Assembly (NCBI GenBank): GCA_040437565.1
Contig: JBDOQK010000020.1
Coordinates: forward strand, 372,001 to 436,000
Reading direction: 5' to 3'
Length of the DNA: 64,000 nucleotides
DNA from: Albugo candida
Lineage: Eukaryota
In this document: positions 54,709 through 64,000 of the stretch, piece by piece
Position numbering within the stretch: position 1 is the stretch's first letter
Layout of the letters: each line of letters begins with the position of its first letter
The notes under the pieces: model-generated
Told to the model about the DNA's origin: nothing
Seen by the model: the letters and a program-made list of their open reading frames with translations, nothing else
Databases searched by the model: none
Program-made: the position numbers and the translations under genes

Positions 54709-55082
54709 CAATGTAAGTATGTGGCCTGAGAAGTAAAGCTCCCTGATTCAAGAATTTGCGATGCACAAAAGTCAAGAACTCGATGCCGTAACGGCCTTGT
54801 GGATTTATAAATAACTAGTCATGGCTCGAAAACGAACATTGATCACAGCGAGCAGATCTTCATGCGATGGTGGTCGATGCTCCACCATGTGATATTTAGT
54901 CTAATACAGGCTTTTAGCACTAGTGGAGAGGAAATGCATGGCTTGCTTGAAAAATATCAAAATACGGTCACACTTGGATCACCGGTCACATTTGATTACT
55001 AAGCTCGAAAAATTTTATTAAGCTAGAAAAAGAACTAGCGGAAGCAGAGAAGCAATGAAGTGTCGTTCCAATACAGTTATCT

Positions 55083-55919
55083 TCATGCAAAAGATGGAGG
55101 TTCCAGTGACGACTTTGTTGGGATGAGATTCGAAGGTGACAAAGGCATACCCGGTTGATAAAAAACTGGAGGGGTGACGGGATTGGGGGCTTGTAGGTAA
55201 GGTGTTGGTCCTGGTGCGGGGCCAGATGATCCTGTCTGATCTGTTGTATGGCTACCTGTTACCGGAGATGGGGGATACTGAGGACTACCTGATGTAATAG
55301 GCGTTGGTGAGGTAGGGCTACCATTGGGTAGAGCTGGATTCCCCGATGGACTTGGAGGTGGGAGATACTGAGGACTACCCAGTGTAGAAAACGTTGGTGA
55401 GGTAGGGCTGCCATTGGGCAGAGCTGGAGTCGCGGGTGGACCTGGCGTCGCGGGTGGACCTGGAGGTGCCTGGGGTTGACCTGGAGGTGCCGCGGGCGGA
55501 GCCGAAGCTGGCTCGGTAAATATTGAGGTAGTATTCGCTTGTGTAGTATTGCCAGCCTCAGGTGCTTTCAATCCAGAAACGACTTTGTTTATTTGGTAGC
55601 CACCAACAGCAAGCGTTACAGCTCCCATCCCAAGGGCCACGTTTCTCCCGAGTTTTGAATTGCTTTTCTTGTACCTCCGAAGAAATCCTTTTGGGTCGTT
55701 TGTTTTGATACTCAGACTTTCACCTTTCAATTCGTAAGTATCGCCCTTCCCATCTTCCCTATGTCCTTCTTCGAATCCCTTCTTTTCTAACTTTTTCGTA
55801 ATTTTCTCGACGGAGTACTCTTTCGGCGTTCTTCGGAAAATGTTTCTCACGCTAAGAGCGTGAAGGATTGACAGATATGAGACGAACGCAAACACGAAAA
55901 GCGATGTTTTTTTATGCAT
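55083..55919 (-). CDS. Putative secreted/membrane-anchored Pro-rich protein
   Basis: From ATG 55919: signal-like MHKKTSLFVFAFVSYLSILHALS, a Lys-rich domain, hydrophobic VALGMGAVTLAVGG, then a Pro-rich tail with a duplicated ALPNGSPTSPT..GSPQY unit. Confidence 0.7.
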   Translation of the reverse strand: MHKKTSLFVFAFVSYLSILHALSVRNIFRRTPKEYSVEKITKKLEKKGFEEGHREDGKGDTYELKGESLSIKTNDPKGFLRRYKKSNSKLGRNVALGMGAVTLAVGGYQINKVVSGLKAPEAGNTTQANTTSIFTEPASAPPAAPPGQPQAPPGPPATPGPPATPALPNGSPTSPTFSTLGSPQYLPPPSPSGNPALPNGSPTSPTPITSGSPQYPPSPVTGSHTTDQTGSSGPAPGPTPYLQAPNPVTPPVFYQPGMPLSPSNLIPTKSSLEPPSFA

Positions 55920-56518
55920 GTGAGTTGAAGATTGCTGGAAGGGAGTAAAATGAATTCTGCGAACGGAATGAAGACAAGACGTTGCGTCATTGTACCCGAT
56001 TGCCACCTCACAAAGACATGCTGTCGTAGCCTACATGTCCACGTGTCTAAACAACTGTGATATATCGAGATTCGTGGACTGAAAAATCAAAGTGGGGTTG
56101 GAATGTCACACGATACCATGATGCTGAGGCCCCAGTATAGTCGTGACACCAAAGGATTCTTCAATTGGGAAGCTCAGCATATTGTGGATGAGCTACAACC
56201 GCGTGGGGATAGAGGGCAATGCAGAGTCCTACACTGATATTGCATGGTGGCACACGAGCGATATTACACGTCACTAAGGTCATGCATTTTGACGAAGCGG
56301 ATCTCGATTCTGCAGTTAGTTTTATCTAGTGTTCGATCTGACGAGTCACAGCCACAATAGACAGCATGTGTGCTCCATTTTTTCCGCAATAGATTTCGGG
56401 AAGCACACGAGACGGTTGCTTATAACGTAAGCAAAGCAGACGCTGACTATTAGTCAGTCATATCGATGGCTGGGTGCGATATTGTTAAGGACACGTGATA
56501 CTGCATCCCAAACGATCT

Positions 56519-57830
56519 TCATTGACTTGATTCCCAGTTATATAGTCGAGTAATGATCTGGCTGATGGACGGCCGTGAGGACGGATCGTGTGTCAGGATA
56601 TCGCTACATTAATGTTTTCGATGAATAATGAGCAAGGATCACTCACAAGCAGTTATACCGAATAAAATCATAAAACTTGGCCGAGTATATAGCCTTTGAC
56701 GGGAATTTGATTGGTGCAAGTACTGATAATGAGGAGCATTCGATGATTCGGACCTTGCCCGTGCTAGTAAAAGAGCATTCCGCTGGAGAATAACCGAAAG
56801 CCATGGCATACAGCACACATCCTAGTGACCATACTGAATATCCAAGACTATCAGACCACACGCTTTCATCTCGAGGGTTTTATGCCTTACCATCTGTCTT
56901 TGTCGTAATGTGTTCTTTGGTTGGAACGTGATATAGCTCTAAGTGATACGATATTTGTGACTAGTTGGGAGCCGGTCTGATCCGCGAAGTACCTGGTGCA
57001 CGATACGGCATTGACGTCATCTGTGAAGCTTTTTCCTGTAATAGCAGCGCCTCTTTTTGTGACGGTATGTAAACATCCCCTTCTGTCACCGAACCGAGGT
57101 CTGTCAGAATCAGCTCTCCCGTCTCGGAGATCATAATATTTTCTGGCTGGACAGATTCTGTTGAAGGCTCCAAAGTACAAAGCGGCGATAATGACATGAT
57201 CGAACCTTTATATCCCGATGAGCCAAAGCGGGCGTGTGCTTATGAAACTCGGCAATGGCTTGACATAACTCGAGAAAGCGATCCAGGATCCATCGCTCGG
57301 ATAAAGATATATTTTGCCTGCATCGTGAATGTTTATAAGAGCCTCAAAAAAGAGAGAACATACTGAGGCCTTACTCAAGAGAAATGTCGATTTTATCTCG
57401 CAGTGTTCCTTCCTATAAGAGAAATGTTTATCGAAGAACCTGTAATGAAGGCCCTGAGATGAAAGTATTACCTGCATATACGGGAATAATAAGTAGAATT
57501 CATGGCAAAGGGATCCCGCTGTGACTTCAGCATGATCAACCAATGGCATGATGTTGGAATGTTTGAAGACATTGTGAAGCTGCACCTCATGTTTTGCCAT
57601 TCGCCTTTGCTCCTCTGATTGACAAATGATCTTCTTGAGCGCAAATACCTGACCAGATGTCGTGTCTTCCGCCTTGTAGACGAATGAAGTAGCACCTTGG
57701 GCTACCTCGCTTTTGATGCAGACACTATAAGTTGACATTTCAGAGTATGTCTGTCAAGATAGGGTAGCGCTGCAAACGACCTTCGACCACTTTGCATTTG
57801 TATGCAGCTACTTAAGCTAAAGCAGTGCAT
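56519..57830 (-). CDS. NAK-family Ser/Thr kinase (STK16/Env7-like), multi-exon
   Basis: VAQGATSFVY, FALKKIIC, HSNIMPL, LLFPYM, PENIMI..LTDLGS, SMPYRAP and VWSLGCVLYAMAFGYSP across exons. Cys-containing N-terminus. Ends inferred. Confidence 0.85.
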
Positions 57831-58723
57831 CGTTCGCCTTATTGCAAGAAGTGGAAGAAATTTGATTGCCGCACACACACTTCTGACGGTACTGATCTCA
57901 TGTAGATTGTGTGAACGATTTTTTGAATCATTCGCTGACGAAAGAAATCGGGTAAACTGCTCGTCATCATCCATTTTTGTCCGCTACCTTTGAGAAGTGA
58001 TAACACATTGTGCGTTCAATGGGACAAGAAAATGACGAATCAATAATCGTTAGCTACAGGAATACAGGCTAGAGAGCTGAATGACCACAAACTATGCGCG
58101 CGGTCTATCAGTGACGCCTCATATCAATAATCACTTAGAGTCTTAGTGCGCTTCTCGTGCTCAACAATACTTCACAATCGCACGCAATCCGAGAATACGA
58201 GCTATTACTGAGTGCTATAAATCCGCAAGTGTAGCGGTACACATTTATACGTATGCACGTGGTGGATGTGATGCTTGACCTCGTCATAGAGCAAAAAAAA
58301 ATCGGCTTGTAAAATGCACCATGTATGCCTTGTATTAATGTGAATATGACTCTAAGGACTGCCTAAGGAAATGAACGTAGTCTGAGCATACGACACGGTA
58401 CCGATAACCTTCTATTCATTGCACATTTGCTCATTCCATTCAGTCAAAGTTTCTGAGCGCTTAAACGCGATTGAAAATGCCCGAGCATTCTCGAACATAA
58501 ATCAAACAAAGATCTTCAATACTCGTCCGGGGTAGTGTCTGCTATCAAACGTATTGCCATGGCAATAACTCTTACAAAAAGGCAGTGAACGCACTCAAAT
58601 AGGTGGCAATTCAGCAGAAAGGAAACAATTTAATGTATTCGTTTCCGGTATAGAATCAGATCTGAGACGTATATTTTTGACCAGTCATGTGCACTAATGC
58701 TGTCGCTTTGAGACGATAACCAA

Positions 58724-61700
58724 ATGTCTGCCCTTCCGCTTGAAAAAATGGGTTTATTGAATCAGTCAGAAACAGACGTATCCAATAATGCACACCATCA
58801 CCAAAATGCATCAGATAAAGCAACAGGAAGAAAGGTTGCCTCAGAAGACATATACGATCACGAAATATCCGAGCCGGAAACTCCTTTCCACCGGATCATC
58901 GACGCACAACCACAGACAATGTTACACGGTCAAACAAAGCCATTACCACCTTATTTACTGGGAAGTGGATACGTTTCGAATTCCTATTTCGTCTGCAGAC
59001 TTCGATATCTTATGTACTGCATGGCATTCATTGATTGTGTCGGAATTGCTGCGTTTTGGTTCACAGATAGTATCAACGATGGTGGCCTTTATGTTGAGGA
59101 TGCGAGATCATCTATGTCGTTCCGAAAAGCGAGATGCGTCGCACGAGGAGGCTGTAGTGATAGCTGTGAGACCATTGTGGTATATGGCTCTTTAATATAT
59201 CACATGCTTCCTCTGGTCGTTCTTATCGGCCTTCCTGCCTCCGGATGGAGATGTTTTGAGCCTTTTGAAAGGACAGAATTCTCACCTGTTGATTCTAGAC
59301 AATATTTGCAAAATGAGCAAAGTCGACGCCACGCTGAAAATCACGAGAGCATCGAAGCGGTTCCAAGCGATCAATCAACGCGGATTTATACTTCTCTAAA
59401 TTCAGTATCTGATTCTCCTATGCAAGTAAATCAGAGAAGTGGAGGTAAAAAGCAGAATTCAACCAAGCTCAGACGGACAGCATTTCTCCAGATATGTGAG
59501 CTGAGTGCCGTTCTTGTGCTTTGGATCAACTTTCTAATTATGCTATATTATATTTATGGACTGTTTCATGGAGATTCTTTAAATTGCGGGTATGTGCAGG
59601 TACAGCTATACGTCGATCTGGCGGTCATCCCTTTCGTACTCCATTTCGTGGAGCTTTGTTATTTTTTTCGATACCGAGAACACATCAAAATGCAACTTGG
59701 AGCTTTCCATGAAGAAGATCAAACTGGAGGACTAAAGTCTGCTTTCGTGAAGACATTTCACCGTCGGCATCTTTTCAAGTCCAAAACCACTTCATTTGCT
59801 CGCAACATCCGGAAAGCTTTATTCAAAGCTGCAGAATTGGAGAATCTCAGGGATTTGTCTTACACGCTTGTGAGTGCGCAAGAGCGCTTAGGACGTGACT
59901 TTGCCGCTCGGATGTATTCCAACCCCAAAATGCGACTACGTTTCTTTTCAAAATCAAAAAAGAATCCACTTCACGCAGCGGCAGCCAACGGAAATGTGCA
60001 GATGATAGACGTCCTGATCCATGCGGGATTTGGCGTAAATTCGCTCGATAAAGTAGCCAGAATGCGATTGAGCACAGGCGATGTATTTCTATACTTTGCA
60101 AAGTTTTTCATATCAGACCCCGTGCCTAGCGACACAGCAACTTCGATTTATAAGACCACGTTAGTGACTCCGTTACATTGTGCCGTCTATATGAATCAAA
60201 TCGAAGCGGTCAAGGCGCTAATTGCTCATGGAGCCGACGTCAACAAATGCGCAAAATCTTCAAACGCAAATCATGTGGTGCCACCTCTATTTATCGCAGA
60301 AAACACCATGATTGTGCGGCTACTACTCGAAGCGGGGGCAAATCATTTGCTAGTGCCTGATCCTGGCCACCAAAATACATTGACAGCTCTACAGCTGGCT
60401 TATCTAAGTGACAACATTCCAGTAGCACGGGAGCTGGAAAAATGGGGAGGTGATGTTGCTTTGACTCCTCTTCATGCGGCTGCAGGCGCTAATCATGACG
60501 CAGCAGTCCGCAAGCTACTGAAGAAAAAAGCAGATCCAAACAGTTTGGGAGAGTTTGGGTACGAAGGTCTCCATCGACGAACACCTTTGCATTGGGCAGC
60601 TGTTAAGAACGCTTCATCAAGTCTGCTAGAGCTCCTATTGTGTGGTGGTAATCCAAACTTTCAGGACCGTTTGGGACGAACTCCTCTGCATTGGGCTGCT
60701 AGCTTAGGCTCAACGGAATGCGTATTACTGCTTTTACAAAATGGTGCGGATTGTCGGATTCGAGATGCTTCCACGATGACTCCGATGCTCTGTGCCGGTC
60801 GTGCTCGTTTGGGAACCGATGTGCTATTCAATCATCTCATCAAGTATGGCGCAGATGTCAATGACTGTACCTTGACTGGCGATACCGCTCTTCACTTGGC
60901 GGTCAAAGAAGAACGGTTGGGGACAGCTCTATCGCTGATAGCTTGTGGTGCTGATATGCACAAGGTGAACCAGTATGGCTTCCGTCCGCTCGATAATACG
61001 ACTTCGACAAAATTTCAATTTGAGATGAAACGCGCTTCCGGGTACCGCGATATCTTGATCACAGCAACACCGACTCACGTGGAATTTGCAACGAAATTGA
61101 AAGATAGCTTGGAACGTATGAACATAACCGCTTGGCGACTGGATTACGTCGAGCTGGAAAAAATTGAGGATACTTCCTGGCGGGAAAGAGTAGTTCGCGA
61201 TATTGCTAGTACATCTATCATCATCGCTGTAATCACACAAGACTTCACGTTATCGGAATGCTGTTTACGAGAATTAGCGACTGCGAAAGAAGTGGGTACT
61301 CCAGTGATGGCAGTTTCCACTGAAAATGCTCGTATTGGTGACGAGCTTCAGGTTTATCTTTACACACGACAAGTGGTACCATTCGAGAGTGCAATCGTTG
61401 CTTCTACTCAATCTGATGCGCCTACAGCCTATGACCACCTATCTGAGCAAGATCGATCAGATGTAAAACCTATCTCATACCTTTACGACGAAGCGAAATA
61501 TGAAGCCCAGTTTCGACTGCTACTGGATGGTGTGCGGGATGAAATCGAGAAACAACGAAAAGGTCAGATCCAAAAGCAGTTGTCACAAAACCAAACAGCC
61601 ATGTTTGAGACAGCAGTACGTGGCCAGACAATGTTTGAGTCTCTTGTGGGATCACATATCTCGTTTATATCAAATAAAGAAGTCACCGCGGGCTCAGGAG

Positions 61701-62200
61701 CAGAGGATCCGAATTCGGAGAGTACGTCTAAAGTATCTGGTGAGCCTCATCGATCGAATCCAGCGGAAAGGAAATATGTTTTCATCGCTCATGGGGACTG
61801 CCATCGAGCATTCGTACGCAATTTATATGAGCGATTATCAAGCTGCGGGTACGCTGTAGTCGTGGATGGCGGTAGTTTCAATGAATTGCCTGAGGCTTCT
61901 AATATGAAAGAACGTATTCAGGCAGGGAAAAATGCAATTCTCGGTTGTTCTGCGTGTATCGTCGTCGTATCGGAACGAACCGCTAAAAATGAGCTCGTCA
62001 GTGATCAACTTGCATTTGCAGAAGATAAACAACGTCCGATATTCCCTATACTGCTGAACGACGTGAAACTGGATACTTCTGTGATTTCTCTACTCAGCTA
62101 CAGACCTTTGTATCATTTCACAACGAATGTGGGCTTCACTGCGTCATTGCATCAGCTTATGACACGGATGCGAGAGATTTTGCCTCTTGAAGGCATGTAA
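58724..62200 (+). CDS. Multi-pass membrane protein with ankyrin repeats and two C-terminal TIR domains
   Basis: Intronless, 1158 aa, four hydrophobic segments. Ankyrin motifs NPLHAAA, TPLHCAV, TPLHAAA, TPLHWAA (x2) and TALHLAV. TIR_2-like blocks start near 61046 and 61772. Confidence 0.9.
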   Translation: MSALPLEKMGLLNQSETDVSNNAHHHQNASDKATGRKVASEDIYDHEISEPETPFHRIIDAQPQTMLHGQTKPLPPYLLGSGYVSNSYFVCRLRYLMYCMAFIDCVGIAAFWFTDSINDGGLYVEDARSSMSFRKARCVARGGCSDSCETIVVYGSLIYHMLPLVVLIGLPASGWRCFEPFERTEFSPVDSRQYLQNEQSRRHAENHESIEAVPSDQSTRIYTSLNSVSDSPMQVNQRSGGKKQNSTKLRRTAFLQICELSAVLVLWINFLIMLYYIYGLFHGDSLNCGYVQVQLYVDLAVIPFVLHFVELCYFFRYREHIKMQLGAFHEEDQTGGLKSAFVKTFHRRHLFKSKTTSFARNIRKALFKAAELENLRDLSYTLVSAQERLGRDFAARMYSNPKMRLRFFSKSKKNPLHAAAANGNVQMIDVLIHAGFGVNSLDKVARMRLSTGDVFLYFAKFFISDPVPSDTATSIYKTTLVTPLHCAVYMNQIEAVKALIAHGADVNKCAKSSNANHVVPPLFIAENTMIVRLLLEAGANHLLVPDPGHQNTLTALQLAYLSDNIPVARELEKWGGDVALTPLHAAAGANHDAAVRKLLKKKADPNSLGEFGYEGLHRRTPLHWAAVKNASSSLLELLLCGGNPNFQDRLGRTPLHWAASLGSTECVLLLLQNGADCRIRDASTMTPMLCAGRARLGTDVLFNHLIKYGADVNDCTLTGDTALHLAVKEERLGTALSLIACGADMHKVNQYGFRPLDNTTSTKFQFEMKRASGYRDILITATPTHVEFATKLKDSLERMNITAWRLDYVELEKIEDTSWRERVVRDIASTSIIIAVITQDFTLSECCLRELATAKEVGTPVMAVSTENARIGDELQVYLYTRQVVPFESAIVASTQSDAPTAYDHLSEQDRSDVKPISYLYDEAKYEAQFRLLLDGVRDEIEKQRKGQIQKQLSQNQTAMFETAVRGQTMFESLVGSHISFISNKEVTAGSGAEDPNSESTSKVSGEPHRSNPAERKYVFIAHGDCHRAFVRNLYERLSSCGYAVVVDGGSFNELPEASNMKERIQAGKNAILGCSACIVVVSERTAKNELVSDQLAFAEDKQRPIFPILLNDVKLDTSVISLLSYRPLYHFTTNVGFTASLHQLMTRMREILPLEGM

Positions 62201-62811
62201 TATATTCCAGCAATTACATCAAGTAATCAAGCGAAAGATATAATTACGAAATTGATATAGGACGATATCATTTATTAGGATGAGATCGAGAGGCAGCATT
62301 TCGTATAGTATATGCAATGTCTGATCTAATCCGCCGACTCAATACGCGGGTCGAATGCATAGAGGCGGCGCGCTGCTATATTATATATTCCTTTTGATTG
62401 GGTCCTTTGATATGTACAAACAGTACATGATACGAAACATCCACAAGTTAAATACGTTCTTTTGTCGAATCAAGTCGCTACTACTCGCCTTTCGCCTACA
62501 TAACAAATCACAGTGCTGACTGTAGCCGGTGTATAAAGTCGGAATACGTCAGGAGGAGTAAAACGCTCTCAAAAGCTTCCACAAAAGTCAGATCGTGCCA
62601 ATGCAGCATTCGTGCTAGAGTGAAACTGGTAGGAGAATTCTTCTCGTAGAAGCGCTGATTCGTGCGAACCATGTGTTTACATTGTTTCCATGGCGGAGCT
62701 GCCGGTCCGTGTCGTGACAATTTGAAAAATATTCAATCTCTGCACATAGTAACATTCATAAAAACACCAAGATCAAAGTAGTTTTCACGGTAAAAGACTT
62801 GCGTTTCTACC

Positions 62812-64000
62812 ATGCATCCACAGAACTTTGAGCAAATGTCGATTGTAAGTCCTTGTTCGGAAGATTTGGAAACTCTAAATGTAAATTTTACCCCAAGTAA
62901 GTCACCCGACTCCATCTTCATCAAATTGTCTACCTCGGAAAGCGTCGATGGAGGAGCCTTACGTGCCGGTGGGGCACTGGATTTGAAATCACGTGCAATG
63001 TTCGGATTATTGTGTCAATATGCGGCGGTCGGATTGGTGTATGGCACTCTACCTCAACTGATCTTACCATTTCTGACGTATTACCTCAACACAGAGGGAA
63101 TCATCACTGCTGCCGCTGCGGCGCTTATGGACGTCCCGTGGGCATTTAAGGCTTTTTTTGGGATGCTATCGGATAATGTGCCGATCAGAGGCTACCGTAG
63201 AAGACCGTATATGATAGTCGGCTGGGTAGTGTCAGCATCTGCATTGTTCATCGCTGGGTCTCTTCGCATGCCAGAGCCGTATTTTCCGAATCCTGCCTGG
63301 CGCGATATCAAGCCCTCCGATTACACTCCTGAGATCACTTCCAGACTAAATTATGATGCTCAACATTCTGGGGGCACTTACGTTCTACTGATGACTCTAG
63401 CGATCCTCGGCTGTTTAGTAGCTGATTGTGCCGCGGATGGTGCGGTGGTTGAGTATGCTCAGCGCGAACCTCTTGCTGTCCGTGGAAGAACACAGACAGC
63501 TGTGTACATAACACGAACACTGGCGATGGCAATTTCTCAAGTAATAATTGGATTTGGGCTGAACACACCAGATTATGGTGGAACTTTCAGCTTTGGACTC
63601 TCAGTTTCAACTATCATGTATTTGCTGGCATTCACATGCATCATAACTATCCCAATCACGTGGGCATTTATTGTGGAAGAGAAACATCAAAGCATGTATT
63701 TCAGTCTTTACATTATGGAGTTGTGGGAGAATATTCAATCTCCAGCGTTTTACAACGTGGTCGGCTTCAGTTTTTTTTATGGAATCTTCGGCTCTGTCGG
63801 CTATGTTGCATTTGATACGATGACAAGTTACTGGGTCGGCGCCACGAGCTTCAGCATTAGTCTCACAATTATTCTGGGCTACGTGATATTCGCTGGAACA
63901 CTTTACGTCACGGGCAAATATGGGCTTAACTGGGATTGGAGATTTATGATTGCGATCACAAATATTGTTTCTATTGGAATGGATGCTGTATGTACAATGT
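62812..64000 (+). CDS. Folate-biopterin transporter (FBT/BT1, MFS), 3' truncated by window edge
   Basis: Open frame from ATG 62812: GGALRAGGA..GLLCQYAAVG..PWAFKAFFGMLSDNVPIRGYRRRPYMIVGW..ADCAADGAVVEYAQREP..RGRTQ. Not in the ORF track because it has no stop within the window. Confidence 0.9.
   Translation, partial: MHPQNFEQMSIVSPCSEDLETLNVNFTPSKSPDSIFIKLSTSESVDGGALRAGGALDLKSRAMFGLLCQYAAVGLVYGTLPQLILPFLTYYLNTEGIITAAAAALMDVPWAFKAFFGMLSDNVPIRGYRRRPYMIVGWVVSASALFIAGSLRMPEPYFPNPAWRDIKPSDYTPEITSRLNYDAQHSGGTYVLLMTLAILGCLVADCAADGAVVEYAQREPLAVRGRTQTAVYITRTLAMAISQVIIGFGLNTPDYGGTFSFGLSVSTIMYLLAFTCIITIPITWAFIVEEKHQSMYFSLYIMELWENIQSPAFYNVVGFSFFYGIFGSVGYVAFDTMTSYWVGATSFSISLTIILGYVIFAGTLYVTGKYGLNWDWRFMIAITNIVSIGMDAVCTM

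Follow-up and report, generated by a model that had tools for sequence, protein, structure and literature searches.

Can one membrane protein hold both a TIR domain of the enzymatic type and a second TIR domain fixed in a non-catalytic state, and what would such a pair do? The question is raised by a gene of Albugo candida that lies on the forward strand of contig JBDOQK010000020.1 (assembly GCA_040437565.1), within the 64,000-nucleotide stretch from position 372,001 to 436,000 that was analysed here and is called the window. The gene encodes a protein in which a predicted four-helix membrane bundle is followed by an ankyrin solenoid and by two TIR domains, TIR1 and TIR2, joined by a long helix. 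TIR domains are ancient immune and cell-death enzymes that process nicotinamide adenine dinucleotide (NAD+) in bacteria, plants and animals, and oomycetes include major crop and fish pathogens; to our knowledge nothing is known of the roles of TIR proteins in oomycetes. The explanation towards which the evidence leans, modestly, is that of a membrane-anchored ankyrin tandem-TIR protein whose TIR2 would be the non-catalytic partner of an NAD+-processing TIR1, with the window copy specialised for the TIR2 or scaffold role. What is new is an architectural variant of TIR signalling proteins in a conserved, uncharacterised oomycete family.

Two TIR domains that differ at the catalytic position

Each TIR domain, scanned as a separate piece, exceeds the gathering cut-off of Pfam TIR_2 (PF13676, 28 bits), TIR1 with 32.4 bits (E 1.5e-7) and TIR2 with 38.6 bits (E 1.7e-9). 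The AlphaFold model of residues 760–1158, computed from a 76-sequence alignment, reaches a predicted local distance difference test (pLDDT) score of 81.5 and displays two alpha/beta domains with a beta extension after TIR1. What the sequence-only reading described as a coiled linker is modelled as a single long helix (residues ~923–966) and, after it, ~43 residues of low confidence. Foldseek finds 85 PDB matches to this model at E ≤ 1e-3, a number not split by TIR1 and TIR2, with the SARM1 TIR (7qg0, 6o0u), TIR-STING, SPARTA TIR-APAZ, AbTir, MyD88, RPP1 and RUN1 at the top and TM-scores of 0.64–0.75, normalised to the target, for single-TIR targets. Thus, the Pfam scores of each domain alone and the TIR folds of the model agree with an earlier reading of this DNA from its letters alone (the sequence-only reading), which had recognised two TIR domains. 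Single-sequence phmmer searches with the TIR region, TIR1 or TIR2 against PDB sequences return no match at E ≤ 10; the sequence matches to PDB entries came with profiles.

At E ≤ 1 the TIR1 profile, made from the window protein and ten homologs, matches 52 PDB sequences. Most of them are TIR domains, and the lowest E-values belong to Cat1 (4e-5), RPS4 (4e-4) and AT1G72930 (7e-4). The SEWCLKEL segment of the profile is aligned to the S.WC..EL of Cat1, RPS4, AT1G72930 and 7xoz, and the Glu of this motif in the first three is the catalytic one. In the alignment to AT1G72930, the Ser of DVFLSF lies opposite S780 of the family motif DVMISY (T780 in the window protein), the strand-A Ser of the DVF.S motif. 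TIR domains of MyD88 and of Toll-like receptors (TLRs) are also found among the structural and profile matches. Residues were counted in a 106-row family alignment in which four truncated rows are gapped at the E850 column; Glu occupies this column in all 102 rows that have a residue there. The column four residues before it is Trp in 97 of 102 rows, with Cys in the window protein and Pro in A. laibachii.

The literature reports that most bacterial TIRs depend on the WxxxE Glu of helix C for NADase activity, and that the WxxxE Trp of AbTir (W204) is required for 2'cADPR, a form of cyclic ADP-ribose (cADPR), and is strongly conserved among cADPR-producing TIRs. Also reported are that the TLR4 TIR no longer produces cADPR once its Glu is changed to Gln, that a Ser close to the catalytic Glu is required for activity (SNC1 S26, SARM1 S567) and that the BB loop is important for TIR function. 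Judged by its residues, the family TIR1 bears the hallmarks of NAD+-cleaving TIRs, namely the strand-A Ser, a Gly-rich BB loop (DPSGIGGG) and WxxxE with an invariant Glu, and we infer NAD+ chemistry for it. Canonical family members pass the Pfam ThsB_TIR and PADLOC ThsB models. The TIR1 of the Phytophthora nicotianae homolog P0010, for example, matches the PADLOC ThsB models with E 8e-8, whereas the A. candida protein gives no PADLOC TIR match.

TIR2 differs at exactly this position. Alignment of TIR1 with TIR2 by hhalign (probability 96.8, E 2e-10) places E850 opposite Q1095, and the codons of the two residues, 61271–61273 and 62006–62008, are exactly those given by the sequence-only reading. 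The Q1095 column is Gln in 94 of 100 rows, Ser in three, Leu, Thr and Arg in one each and Glu in none, all six non-Gln rows falling within one 7-row subclade of a distant group of homologs. The TIR2 profile matches 16 PDB sequences, the best being AT1G72930 (0.007) and Cat1 (0.01), and sets Gln on the catalytic Glu and Leu on the Trp. The family TIR2 is without this Trp and Glu but displays a near-invariant signature of its own, DQLAFAEDKG.PI.P. TIR2 reads as non-catalytic in both alignments, hhalign and PDB profiles, as proposed earlier from the single protein, and the survey across oomycete homologs extends the Glu/Gln split to the family as an ancient and conserved one. TIR2 appears to be a fixed natural Glu-to-Gln pseudo-enzyme with a strongly conserved surface of its own, and the Gln state appears to have been fixed since before the peronosporalean–saprolegnian split.

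An oomycete family and its two Albugo copies

A homolog search of 5.8 billion clusters gave 398 matches at E ≤ 0.001 among 8000 scored candidates, and the best 120 of the 398 are considered here. Matches 1–105 are full-length or partial collinear homologs, every source-named one of which is from an oomycete; from match 106 on, the matches listed are only ankyrin proteins of animals and others. The sources are Albugo, Pythium, Globisporangium, Phytophthora, Nothophytophthora, Peronospora, Hyaloperonospora, Plasmopara, Bremia, Peronosclerospora, Aphanomyces, Saprolegnia and Achlya, so that Peronosporales, Pythiales, Albuginales and Saprolegniales all have members, which are collinear including the transmembrane (TM) motifs. 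Saprotrophic, mycoparasitic and animal-pathogenic species also have members (Pythium oligandrum, P. insidiosum, Saprolegnia, Aphanomyces, Achlya). The best named match, from Albugo laibachii, is 83% identical, a 100% match being present in Logan data only, and the other oomycete homologs are 38–47% identical; overall, the homologs cover 94–100% of the query. They are named 'TIR domain-containing protein', 'ankyrin-like', 'TRP Ca2+ channel family' and, once, 'RxLR effector candidate' (P0042, Hyaloperonospora). Searches for shorter homologs, which depend on shared 5-residue words, give none at E ≤ 0.01 for the TIR1 of the window protein and 41 for the canonical TIR1 of P0010, mostly partial models and all named ones from oomycetes; a non-oomycete stand-alone relative of TIR1 was not found by this word-dependent search.

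The tree of 106 rows (FastTree, with local support only and with long branches flagged, among them the join of the two Albugo pairs) displays three peronosporalean paralog clades of ~1100, 1250 and 1550 residues with 29, 24 and 30 rows, two saprolegnian clades and a distant group of 13 rows. The window protein lies in the 1100-residue clade (clade A, 95–100 local support) together with A. laibachii C73. Beside them, A. candida P0024 and A. laibachii C4 form a further Albugo pair. The family is oomycete-wide and universal in the sampled oomycetes, with at least three conserved paralogs. In several genomes, members of different paralog clades carry closely spaced locus tags (Poli38472_010456/010465/010467, PINS_up005281/005289, P43SY_007728/007732 and CCR75_001080/001092, corresponding to homologs P0031/P0098/P0061, P0034/P0062, P0070/P0071 and P0051/P0053), which suggests that the 1250-residue, 1550-residue and distant paralogs stand in one gene cluster. 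Some long models (P0015, P0070, P0103, P0129, P0131) add a MULE or ZSWIM transposase, RWP-RK, a UDPGT fragment, or LRR_6 plus EF-hand domains, and one long model looks doubled; the extra domains are probably merged annotations or transposon insertions and not true fusions.

The two A. candida copies were compared over family-conserved columns, defined as at least 95% conserved in 83–84 core rows with the compared rows excluded (Table 1). The difference between TIR1 and the linker plus TIR2 is significant within each copy (Fisher test, p=0.0014 in the window copy and p=0.00013 in the sister). A flexible, Gly-containing BB loop serves active-site opening and TIR–TIR contact (compare SARM1 G601P), and residues 807–819 are taken as this loop, which lies between strand B and helix B, from the modelled secondary structure. 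The TIR1 losses of the window copy include three Gly of this loop (G813K, G815E, G816D) as well as W846C, S780T, Y781A and H783P. Relative to the Pythium oligandrum ortholog, the TIR1 core is 48% identical in the window copy and 78% in the sister, and TIR2 49% and 39%, respectively. The window copy thus appears degraded in TIR1, with a third of the family-conserved positions lost, and the sister displays the reversed pattern, which looks like a subfunctionalisation of two TIR roles after an Albugo-specific duplication. Between the window copy and its A. laibachii ortholog, identity is 76–80% in TIR1 (80% in its core), 90% in the ankyrin region and 88% in TIR2; since TIR1 is conserved to this degree between two Albugo species, it is constrained and not decaying freely. 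The description of TIR1 as a catalytic TIR in the sequence-only reading consequently fits the family better than the window copy, which keeps only 49 of 73 positions, has C846 in place of the WxxxE Trp and has lost the Gly-rich character of the BB loop.

Table 1 Family-conserved positions kept in the two A. candida copies
Region	Window protein	Sister P0024
TM	28/28	28/28
Ankyrin	107/115	107/115
TIR1	49/73	63/73
Linker	12/12	4/12
TIR2	27/30	18/30

Membrane part, ankyrin region and surroundings of the gene

The Kyte-Doolittle profile displays four hydrophobic segments at residues ~93–114, 151–169, 257–275 and 293–315. The AlphaFold model of residues 70–400 (pLDDT 81.9, predicted template modelling score 0.72) contains long helices at residues 88–113, 146–172, 253–282 and 291–324 and a disordered loop. 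The two methods agree with the four hydrophobic segments and the Cys-rich loop that had been read from the sequence, the Cys string starting at residue 138. The coordinates of these and the other features are collected in Table 2. Two invariant Cys sit one in each of two predicted outward loops: C148 (59165–59167), invariant in 67 aligned family sequences, in the first, and C288 (59585–59587) in the short loop immediately before TM4. The last 15 residues of the cytoplasmic loop that precedes TM3 include six Lys or Arg and zero Asp or Glu, the TM3–TM4 loop is without Lys and Arg, and YREHIK follows TM4. An N-in/C-in topology is drawn from this distribution of charges and from the cytosolic NAD+ that TIR domains need. 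Both termini are thus predicted to be cytoplasmic. The loops that face outward would be short, ~36 and ~14 residues, and an ectodomain is absent, which leaves the earlier designation of the protein as a receptor unsupported. Nor does the protein resemble Toll-like or interleukin-1 receptors, which combine a leucine-rich repeat (LRR) or immunoglobulin ectodomain with a single TM helix and one C-terminal TIR: Pfam shows no LRR or immunoglobulin profile in it, it has four TM helices and its outward loops are short.

The membrane part was compared with known families by sequence and by structure. The N-terminal 409 residues give nothing meaningful against Pfam at E ≤ 10 (best Synaptobrevin, E 0.21), the model of residues 70–400 has no Foldseek match in the PDB at E ≤ 1e-3, and the best ESM Atlas scores are 0.81–0.85, none reaching 0.9, the level from which a match counts for more than a lead. 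An exhaustive phmmer search with residues 70–345 against 1.84 billion representatives returns only 34 proteins at E ≤ 0.001. Among these 28 are new, of which 11 carry Ank and/or TIR_2 and 17 are short (138–473 residues), without a Pfam family, and may be fragments; none of the 28 places the TM domain in another architecture. One model, of 2513 residues, adds LRR_6 and EF-hand domains downstream and is probably a merged gene model.

The ankyrin region matches Pfam Ank with E 3.6e-41 in six stretches. Strict motifs of the TPLH type occur seven times, ~33 residues apart, and degenerate units bring the total to ~9–10 repeats, in line with the about nine counted in the sequence-only reading. Identity to the A. 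laibachii ortholog is 65.9% over residues 1–84 and 57% over the loop of residues 173–252, compared with the 90% of the ankyrin region.

Table 2 Features of the gene and its protein (positions are those of the window; residues are those of the encoded protein)
Feature	Residues	Position	Strand	Basis and remarks
4TM-ankyrin-TIR1-helix-TIR2 gene		58724..62200	+	complete intronless ATG-to-stop open reading frame, 1158 residues + stop
N-terminal hydrophilic, weakly conserved region, predicted cytoplasmic	1-84	58724..58975	+	no hydrophobic segment; 2 family-conserved columns only
TM helix 1	88-113	58985..59062	+	Kyte-Doolittle peak 93-114; AlphaFold helix pLDDT >90
Cys-rich string, first outward loop	138-148	59135..59167	+	position by sequence scan
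TM helix 2, then conserved LGLPASGxRxFEPF motif	146-172	59159..59239	+	Kyte-Doolittle, family alignment, AlphaFold
Long variable cytoplasmic loop, partly disordered	173-252	59240..59479	+	pLDDT <50 at residues 214-242
TM helix 3, with invariant E259 (59498-59500) and near-invariant C258 inside the helix	253-282	59480..59569	+	alignment, AlphaFold
TM helix 4, running into conserved juxtamembrane motif YF.R.REH.KMQLGAF	291-324	59594..59695	+	alignment, AlphaFold
Ankyrin repeat region, ~9-10 repeats	~400-765	59921..61018	+	Pfam Ank, Ank_2, Ank_3, Ank_4, Ank_5, E 4e-41 to 4e-19
TIR1, conserved C-terminal beta extension included	770-925	61031..61498	+	TIR_2 32.4 bits; TIR fold
TIR1 BB-loop region	807-819	61142..61180	+	family DLMDPSGIGGGSVW; Gly run lost here (G813K, G815E, G816D)
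Helix-C motif C846-C-L-R-E850; family W-C-L-K-E (WxxxE)	846-850	61259..61273	+	Glu at catalytic position 61271-61273
Long linker helix	923-966	61490..61621	+	AlphaFold; 12/12 family-conserved positions retained
Low-confidence variable linker	971-1013	61634..61762	+	pLDDT 33-40; 65% identity to A. laibachii ortholog
TIR2, non-catalytic type, family signature DQLAFAEDK	1014-1150	61763..62173	+	TIR_2 38.6 bits

The length of the open reading frame (ORF) and the more than 100 homologs exclude a chance origin; the other frames overlapping 58724..62200 in the ORF list are short, 119–135 residues. A single contig of run X1 spans 58709–64000, starting 15 nucleotides 5' of the ATG, and carries the whole ORF without a joint into the next gene. 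Contigs of runs X1 and X4 show eight joints of 54–60 nucleotides with CT..AC ends in the adjoining minus-strand gene, that is, spliced GT-AG introns. No run is recorded as RNA, but the spliced joints imply that these two contain RNA-derived sequence. The 4TM-ankyrin-TIR-TIR gene is very probably transcribed and intronless; the contigs give neither transcript ends nor levels, and parts that they leave uncovered (e.g. 58010–58310 in X1, X4 and X5) are not evidence. A contig of run X10 differs from the window at five positions of the ORF (58836, 61761, 61778, 61875, 61895), all five non-synonymous (V38A, P1013L, V1019I, S1051N, A1058S); four are grouped at the linker–TIR2 boundary, the number being too small for a test.

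The adjoining gene, on the minus strand at 55000–58007, encodes a protein kinase. Its ORF piece 57208–57738 matches Pkinase with 29.8 bits, below the cut-off of 31.7 because only a piece of the gene was scanned. Very short introns interrupt the gene at least eight times, with minus-strand joints at 56603/56659, 56833/56891, 56938/56993, 57146/57206, 57316/57374, 57411/57471 and 57724/57781, and besides this set one joint of the plus-strand type, at 56904/56965 (runs X1 and X4). At 55000–55499 the composition is an outlier, with a G+C content of 0.53 and a GC skew of +0.37 against ~0.44 and ~0 nearby, and run X10 has a 21-nucleotide deletion at 55457 relative to the window. Downstream, at 62812–64000 on the plus strand, lies a gene of the BT1 (folate-biopterin transporter) family (Pfam BT1, E 3.9e-13) that runs past the window end; one X1 contig joins the TIR gene, a 611-nucleotide spacer and this gene. 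At 63235–63311, contigs of X1 and X10 show a joint that goes back 766 letters with 1469 letters between, from which it follows that a copy of 63235–63311 recurs ~1.5 kilobases beyond the window end, as a local repeat or duplication.

Function and relation to known systems

In the favoured explanation the ankyrin region and the linker helix would gather molecules at the membrane, where TIR1 would convert NAD+ to ADP-ribose (ADPR) or a cADPR-type signal and TIR2 would be its non-catalytic partner or regulator, the two forming a hard-wired asymmetric TIR pair. TIR2 may act as scaffold or inhibitor, the roles put forward in the sequence-only reading. Of the two products of a lineage-specific duplication, the window copy would be the one that is partly degenerate. 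A mainly TIR2, scaffold or regulatory function is proposed for it because its TM part, linker and TIR2 are intact and its TIR1 is degraded while the sister is reversed. Activity of its TIR1 may be low or shifted from cyclase towards hydrolase, and the copy possibly cooperates with its sister, which keeps TIR1 but has a degraded linker and TIR2. A P. nicotianae TIR of undisclosed architecture makes cADPR in Escherichia coli in a Glu-dependent manner, according to Hurieva et al. 2026 (bioRxiv 10.64898/2026.04.20.719644); were it a member of the present family, catalysis in the family would already be demonstrated. Several points weigh against the favoured explanation. The text of that preprint is without the word 'ankyrin', enzymatic data were identified for no family member, and Glu alone is no proof of catalysis. 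In the window copy W846 and the Gly run of the BB loop are lost, which argues against normal activity, as the change S780T may do too, and its constrained TIR1 could have a new function, which the favoured explanation leaves unspecified. In addition, the alignments of TIR2 to PDB sequences are statistically marginal (E 0.007–0.05), and the pairing of the two Albugo paralogs rests on their complementary divergence pattern only.

The main rival, which is unlikely, is that both TIRs are interaction modules, as in TLRs and MyD88, and that the protein is a pure adaptor or scaffold of a signalling complex at the membrane, with no NAD+ chemistry. The presence of MyD88 and TLR TIRs among the matches, the non-catalytic residues of TIR2 across the family and the conservation between two Albugo species of a TIR1 that has lost its Trp and BB-loop Gly, as expected for a binding surface, all fit an adaptor. 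However, the family retains the Glu (102/102) and the Trp (97/102), along with the Ser of strand A and a BB loop rich in Gly, a set typical of enzymatic TIRs, and its canonical members pass both the ThsB_TIR Pfam and the PADLOC models. The TM part invites another possibility, a very doubtful one, in which the four-helix bundle oligomerises into an ion-conducting pore and the ankyrin and TIR domains are a cytoplasmic gating apparatus. An invariant Glu beside a near-invariant Cys in TM3, all TM positions kept even in the divergent window copy (28/28), a TM domain never found with another architecture and the name 'TRP Ca2+ channel (TRP-CC) family' of some homologs agree with a channel. TRP channels have six TM helices and a pore loop, with ankyrin repeats N-terminal to the TM part. 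In contrast, the present protein has only four TM helices with the ankyrin region C-terminal to them, no ion-channel or TRP domain in Pfam (at E ≤ 1 with the full sequence or at E ≤ 10 with its first 409 residues) and, for the TM model, no Foldseek match in the PDB at E ≤ 1e-3. The TRP label itself is rejected, as it most likely derives from the ankyrin repeats.

Delivery into the plant as a host-targeted effector that manipulates host NAD+ or TIR immunity is hardly credible. It would account for the 'RxLR effector candidate' label of P0042, and bacterial pathogens use TIR/NADase effectors, as passages of PMC9963460 describe. The hydrophilic N-terminus holds no signal-peptide-like segment and is followed by four internal TM helices, and the family is kept in saprotrophs, mycoparasites and animal pathogens, which points to a cell-autonomous role; on the same two grounds, the N-terminus and the distribution, the RxLR label is rejected. 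A more far-reaching variant, and quite an improbable one, is a self-contained membrane machine in which the Glu-TIR and the Gln-TIR, as a hard-wired asymmetric pair, synthesise an NAD+-derived nucleotide at the membrane, the four-helix bundle is the effector and the Albugo copies form an obligate heteromer. The bundle, with its buried Glu–Cys pair and a probable outward disulfide between C148 and C288, would then act as a gated conductance or perturb the membrane, and the duplicated Albugo copies would split the two TIR roles. By analogy, one polypeptide would fuse what bacteria distribute over TIR and TM effectors and what plants arrange as TIR, EDS1 and a helper nucleotide-binding LRR receptor (NLR) channel.

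Returning to the favoured pairing of a catalytic TIR1 with a non-catalytic TIR2, the family joins a membrane bundle without a relative in PDB Foldseek, Pfam or ESM Atlas searches to an enzymatic-type TIR and a fixed Glu-to-Gln pseudo-TIR. It thereby offers a natural experiment in the control of a catalytic TIR by a non-catalytic one, and the two Albugo copies, one degraded in TIR1 and the other in TIR2, already separate the two roles genetically. Should signalling by NAD+ products occur at the membrane, the family would be a stramenopile branch of TIR signalling and could reveal an endogenous oomycete cell-death or stress pathway.

Full-text literature searches found no characterisation of the 4TM-ankyrin-TIR-TIR architecture, as the sequence-only reading had expected, but the class as such had been noticed before: passages of Lapin et al. 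2022 (Plant Cell, PMC9153377) mention oomycete ankyrin repeat-TIR proteins and call them uncharacterised. These are the same protein class, common to oomycetes, with ankyrin repeats followed by a TIR; the passages make no mention of the four-helix bundle, a second TIR, the Glu/Gln split or the paralog structure. Tandem TIRs are described at the C-terminus of mollusc Toll receptors (PMC4929906) and, as two diverged copies, in Dictyostelium TirE (bioRxiv 10.64898/2026.04.30.722052). Both resemble the present protein in having two TIRs in tandem within one eukaryotic polypeptide; they differ from it, as described there, by the LRR ectodomain and single TM helix of the mollusc Toll receptors and by the RCC1 repeats of TirE. 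We know of no report of a fixed Glu/Gln split in either.

Among bacterial TIR enzymes, Thoeris ThsB, AbTir and Cat1 share WxxxE with the canonical family members, and Cat1 is the best PDB profile match (E 4e-5). The window protein differs in being eukaryotic, in its TM and ankyrin parts, in the missing Trp and in giving no PADLOC TIR match, and we know of no partner effector gene for it. SARM1, an ARM-SAM-SAM-TIR NADase, resembles the family in the TIR fold, in the helix-C Glu, in the strand-A Ser of the family TIR1 motif DV.ISY and in a repeat domain that precedes the TIR. SARM1 associates with membranes at mitochondria; the window protein, in contrast, has four integral TM helices, ankyrin repeats in place of ARM and SAM domains (neither found by Pfam) and two TIRs, one with Glu replaced by Gln. 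The best residue-level alignment of the helix-C S.WC..EL is with plant TIRs (RPS4, AT1G72930, RPP1, RUN1, L6). TNL resistosomes such as the tetramers of RPP1 and ROQ1 contain asymmetric TIR pairs in which only one partner employs its active site, an arrangement that provides a model for a pair of Glu-TIR and Gln-TIR. The window protein differs in having neither NB-ARC nor LRR and in being membrane-embedded, and the asymmetry of the TIR pair would be hard-wired in one polypeptide.

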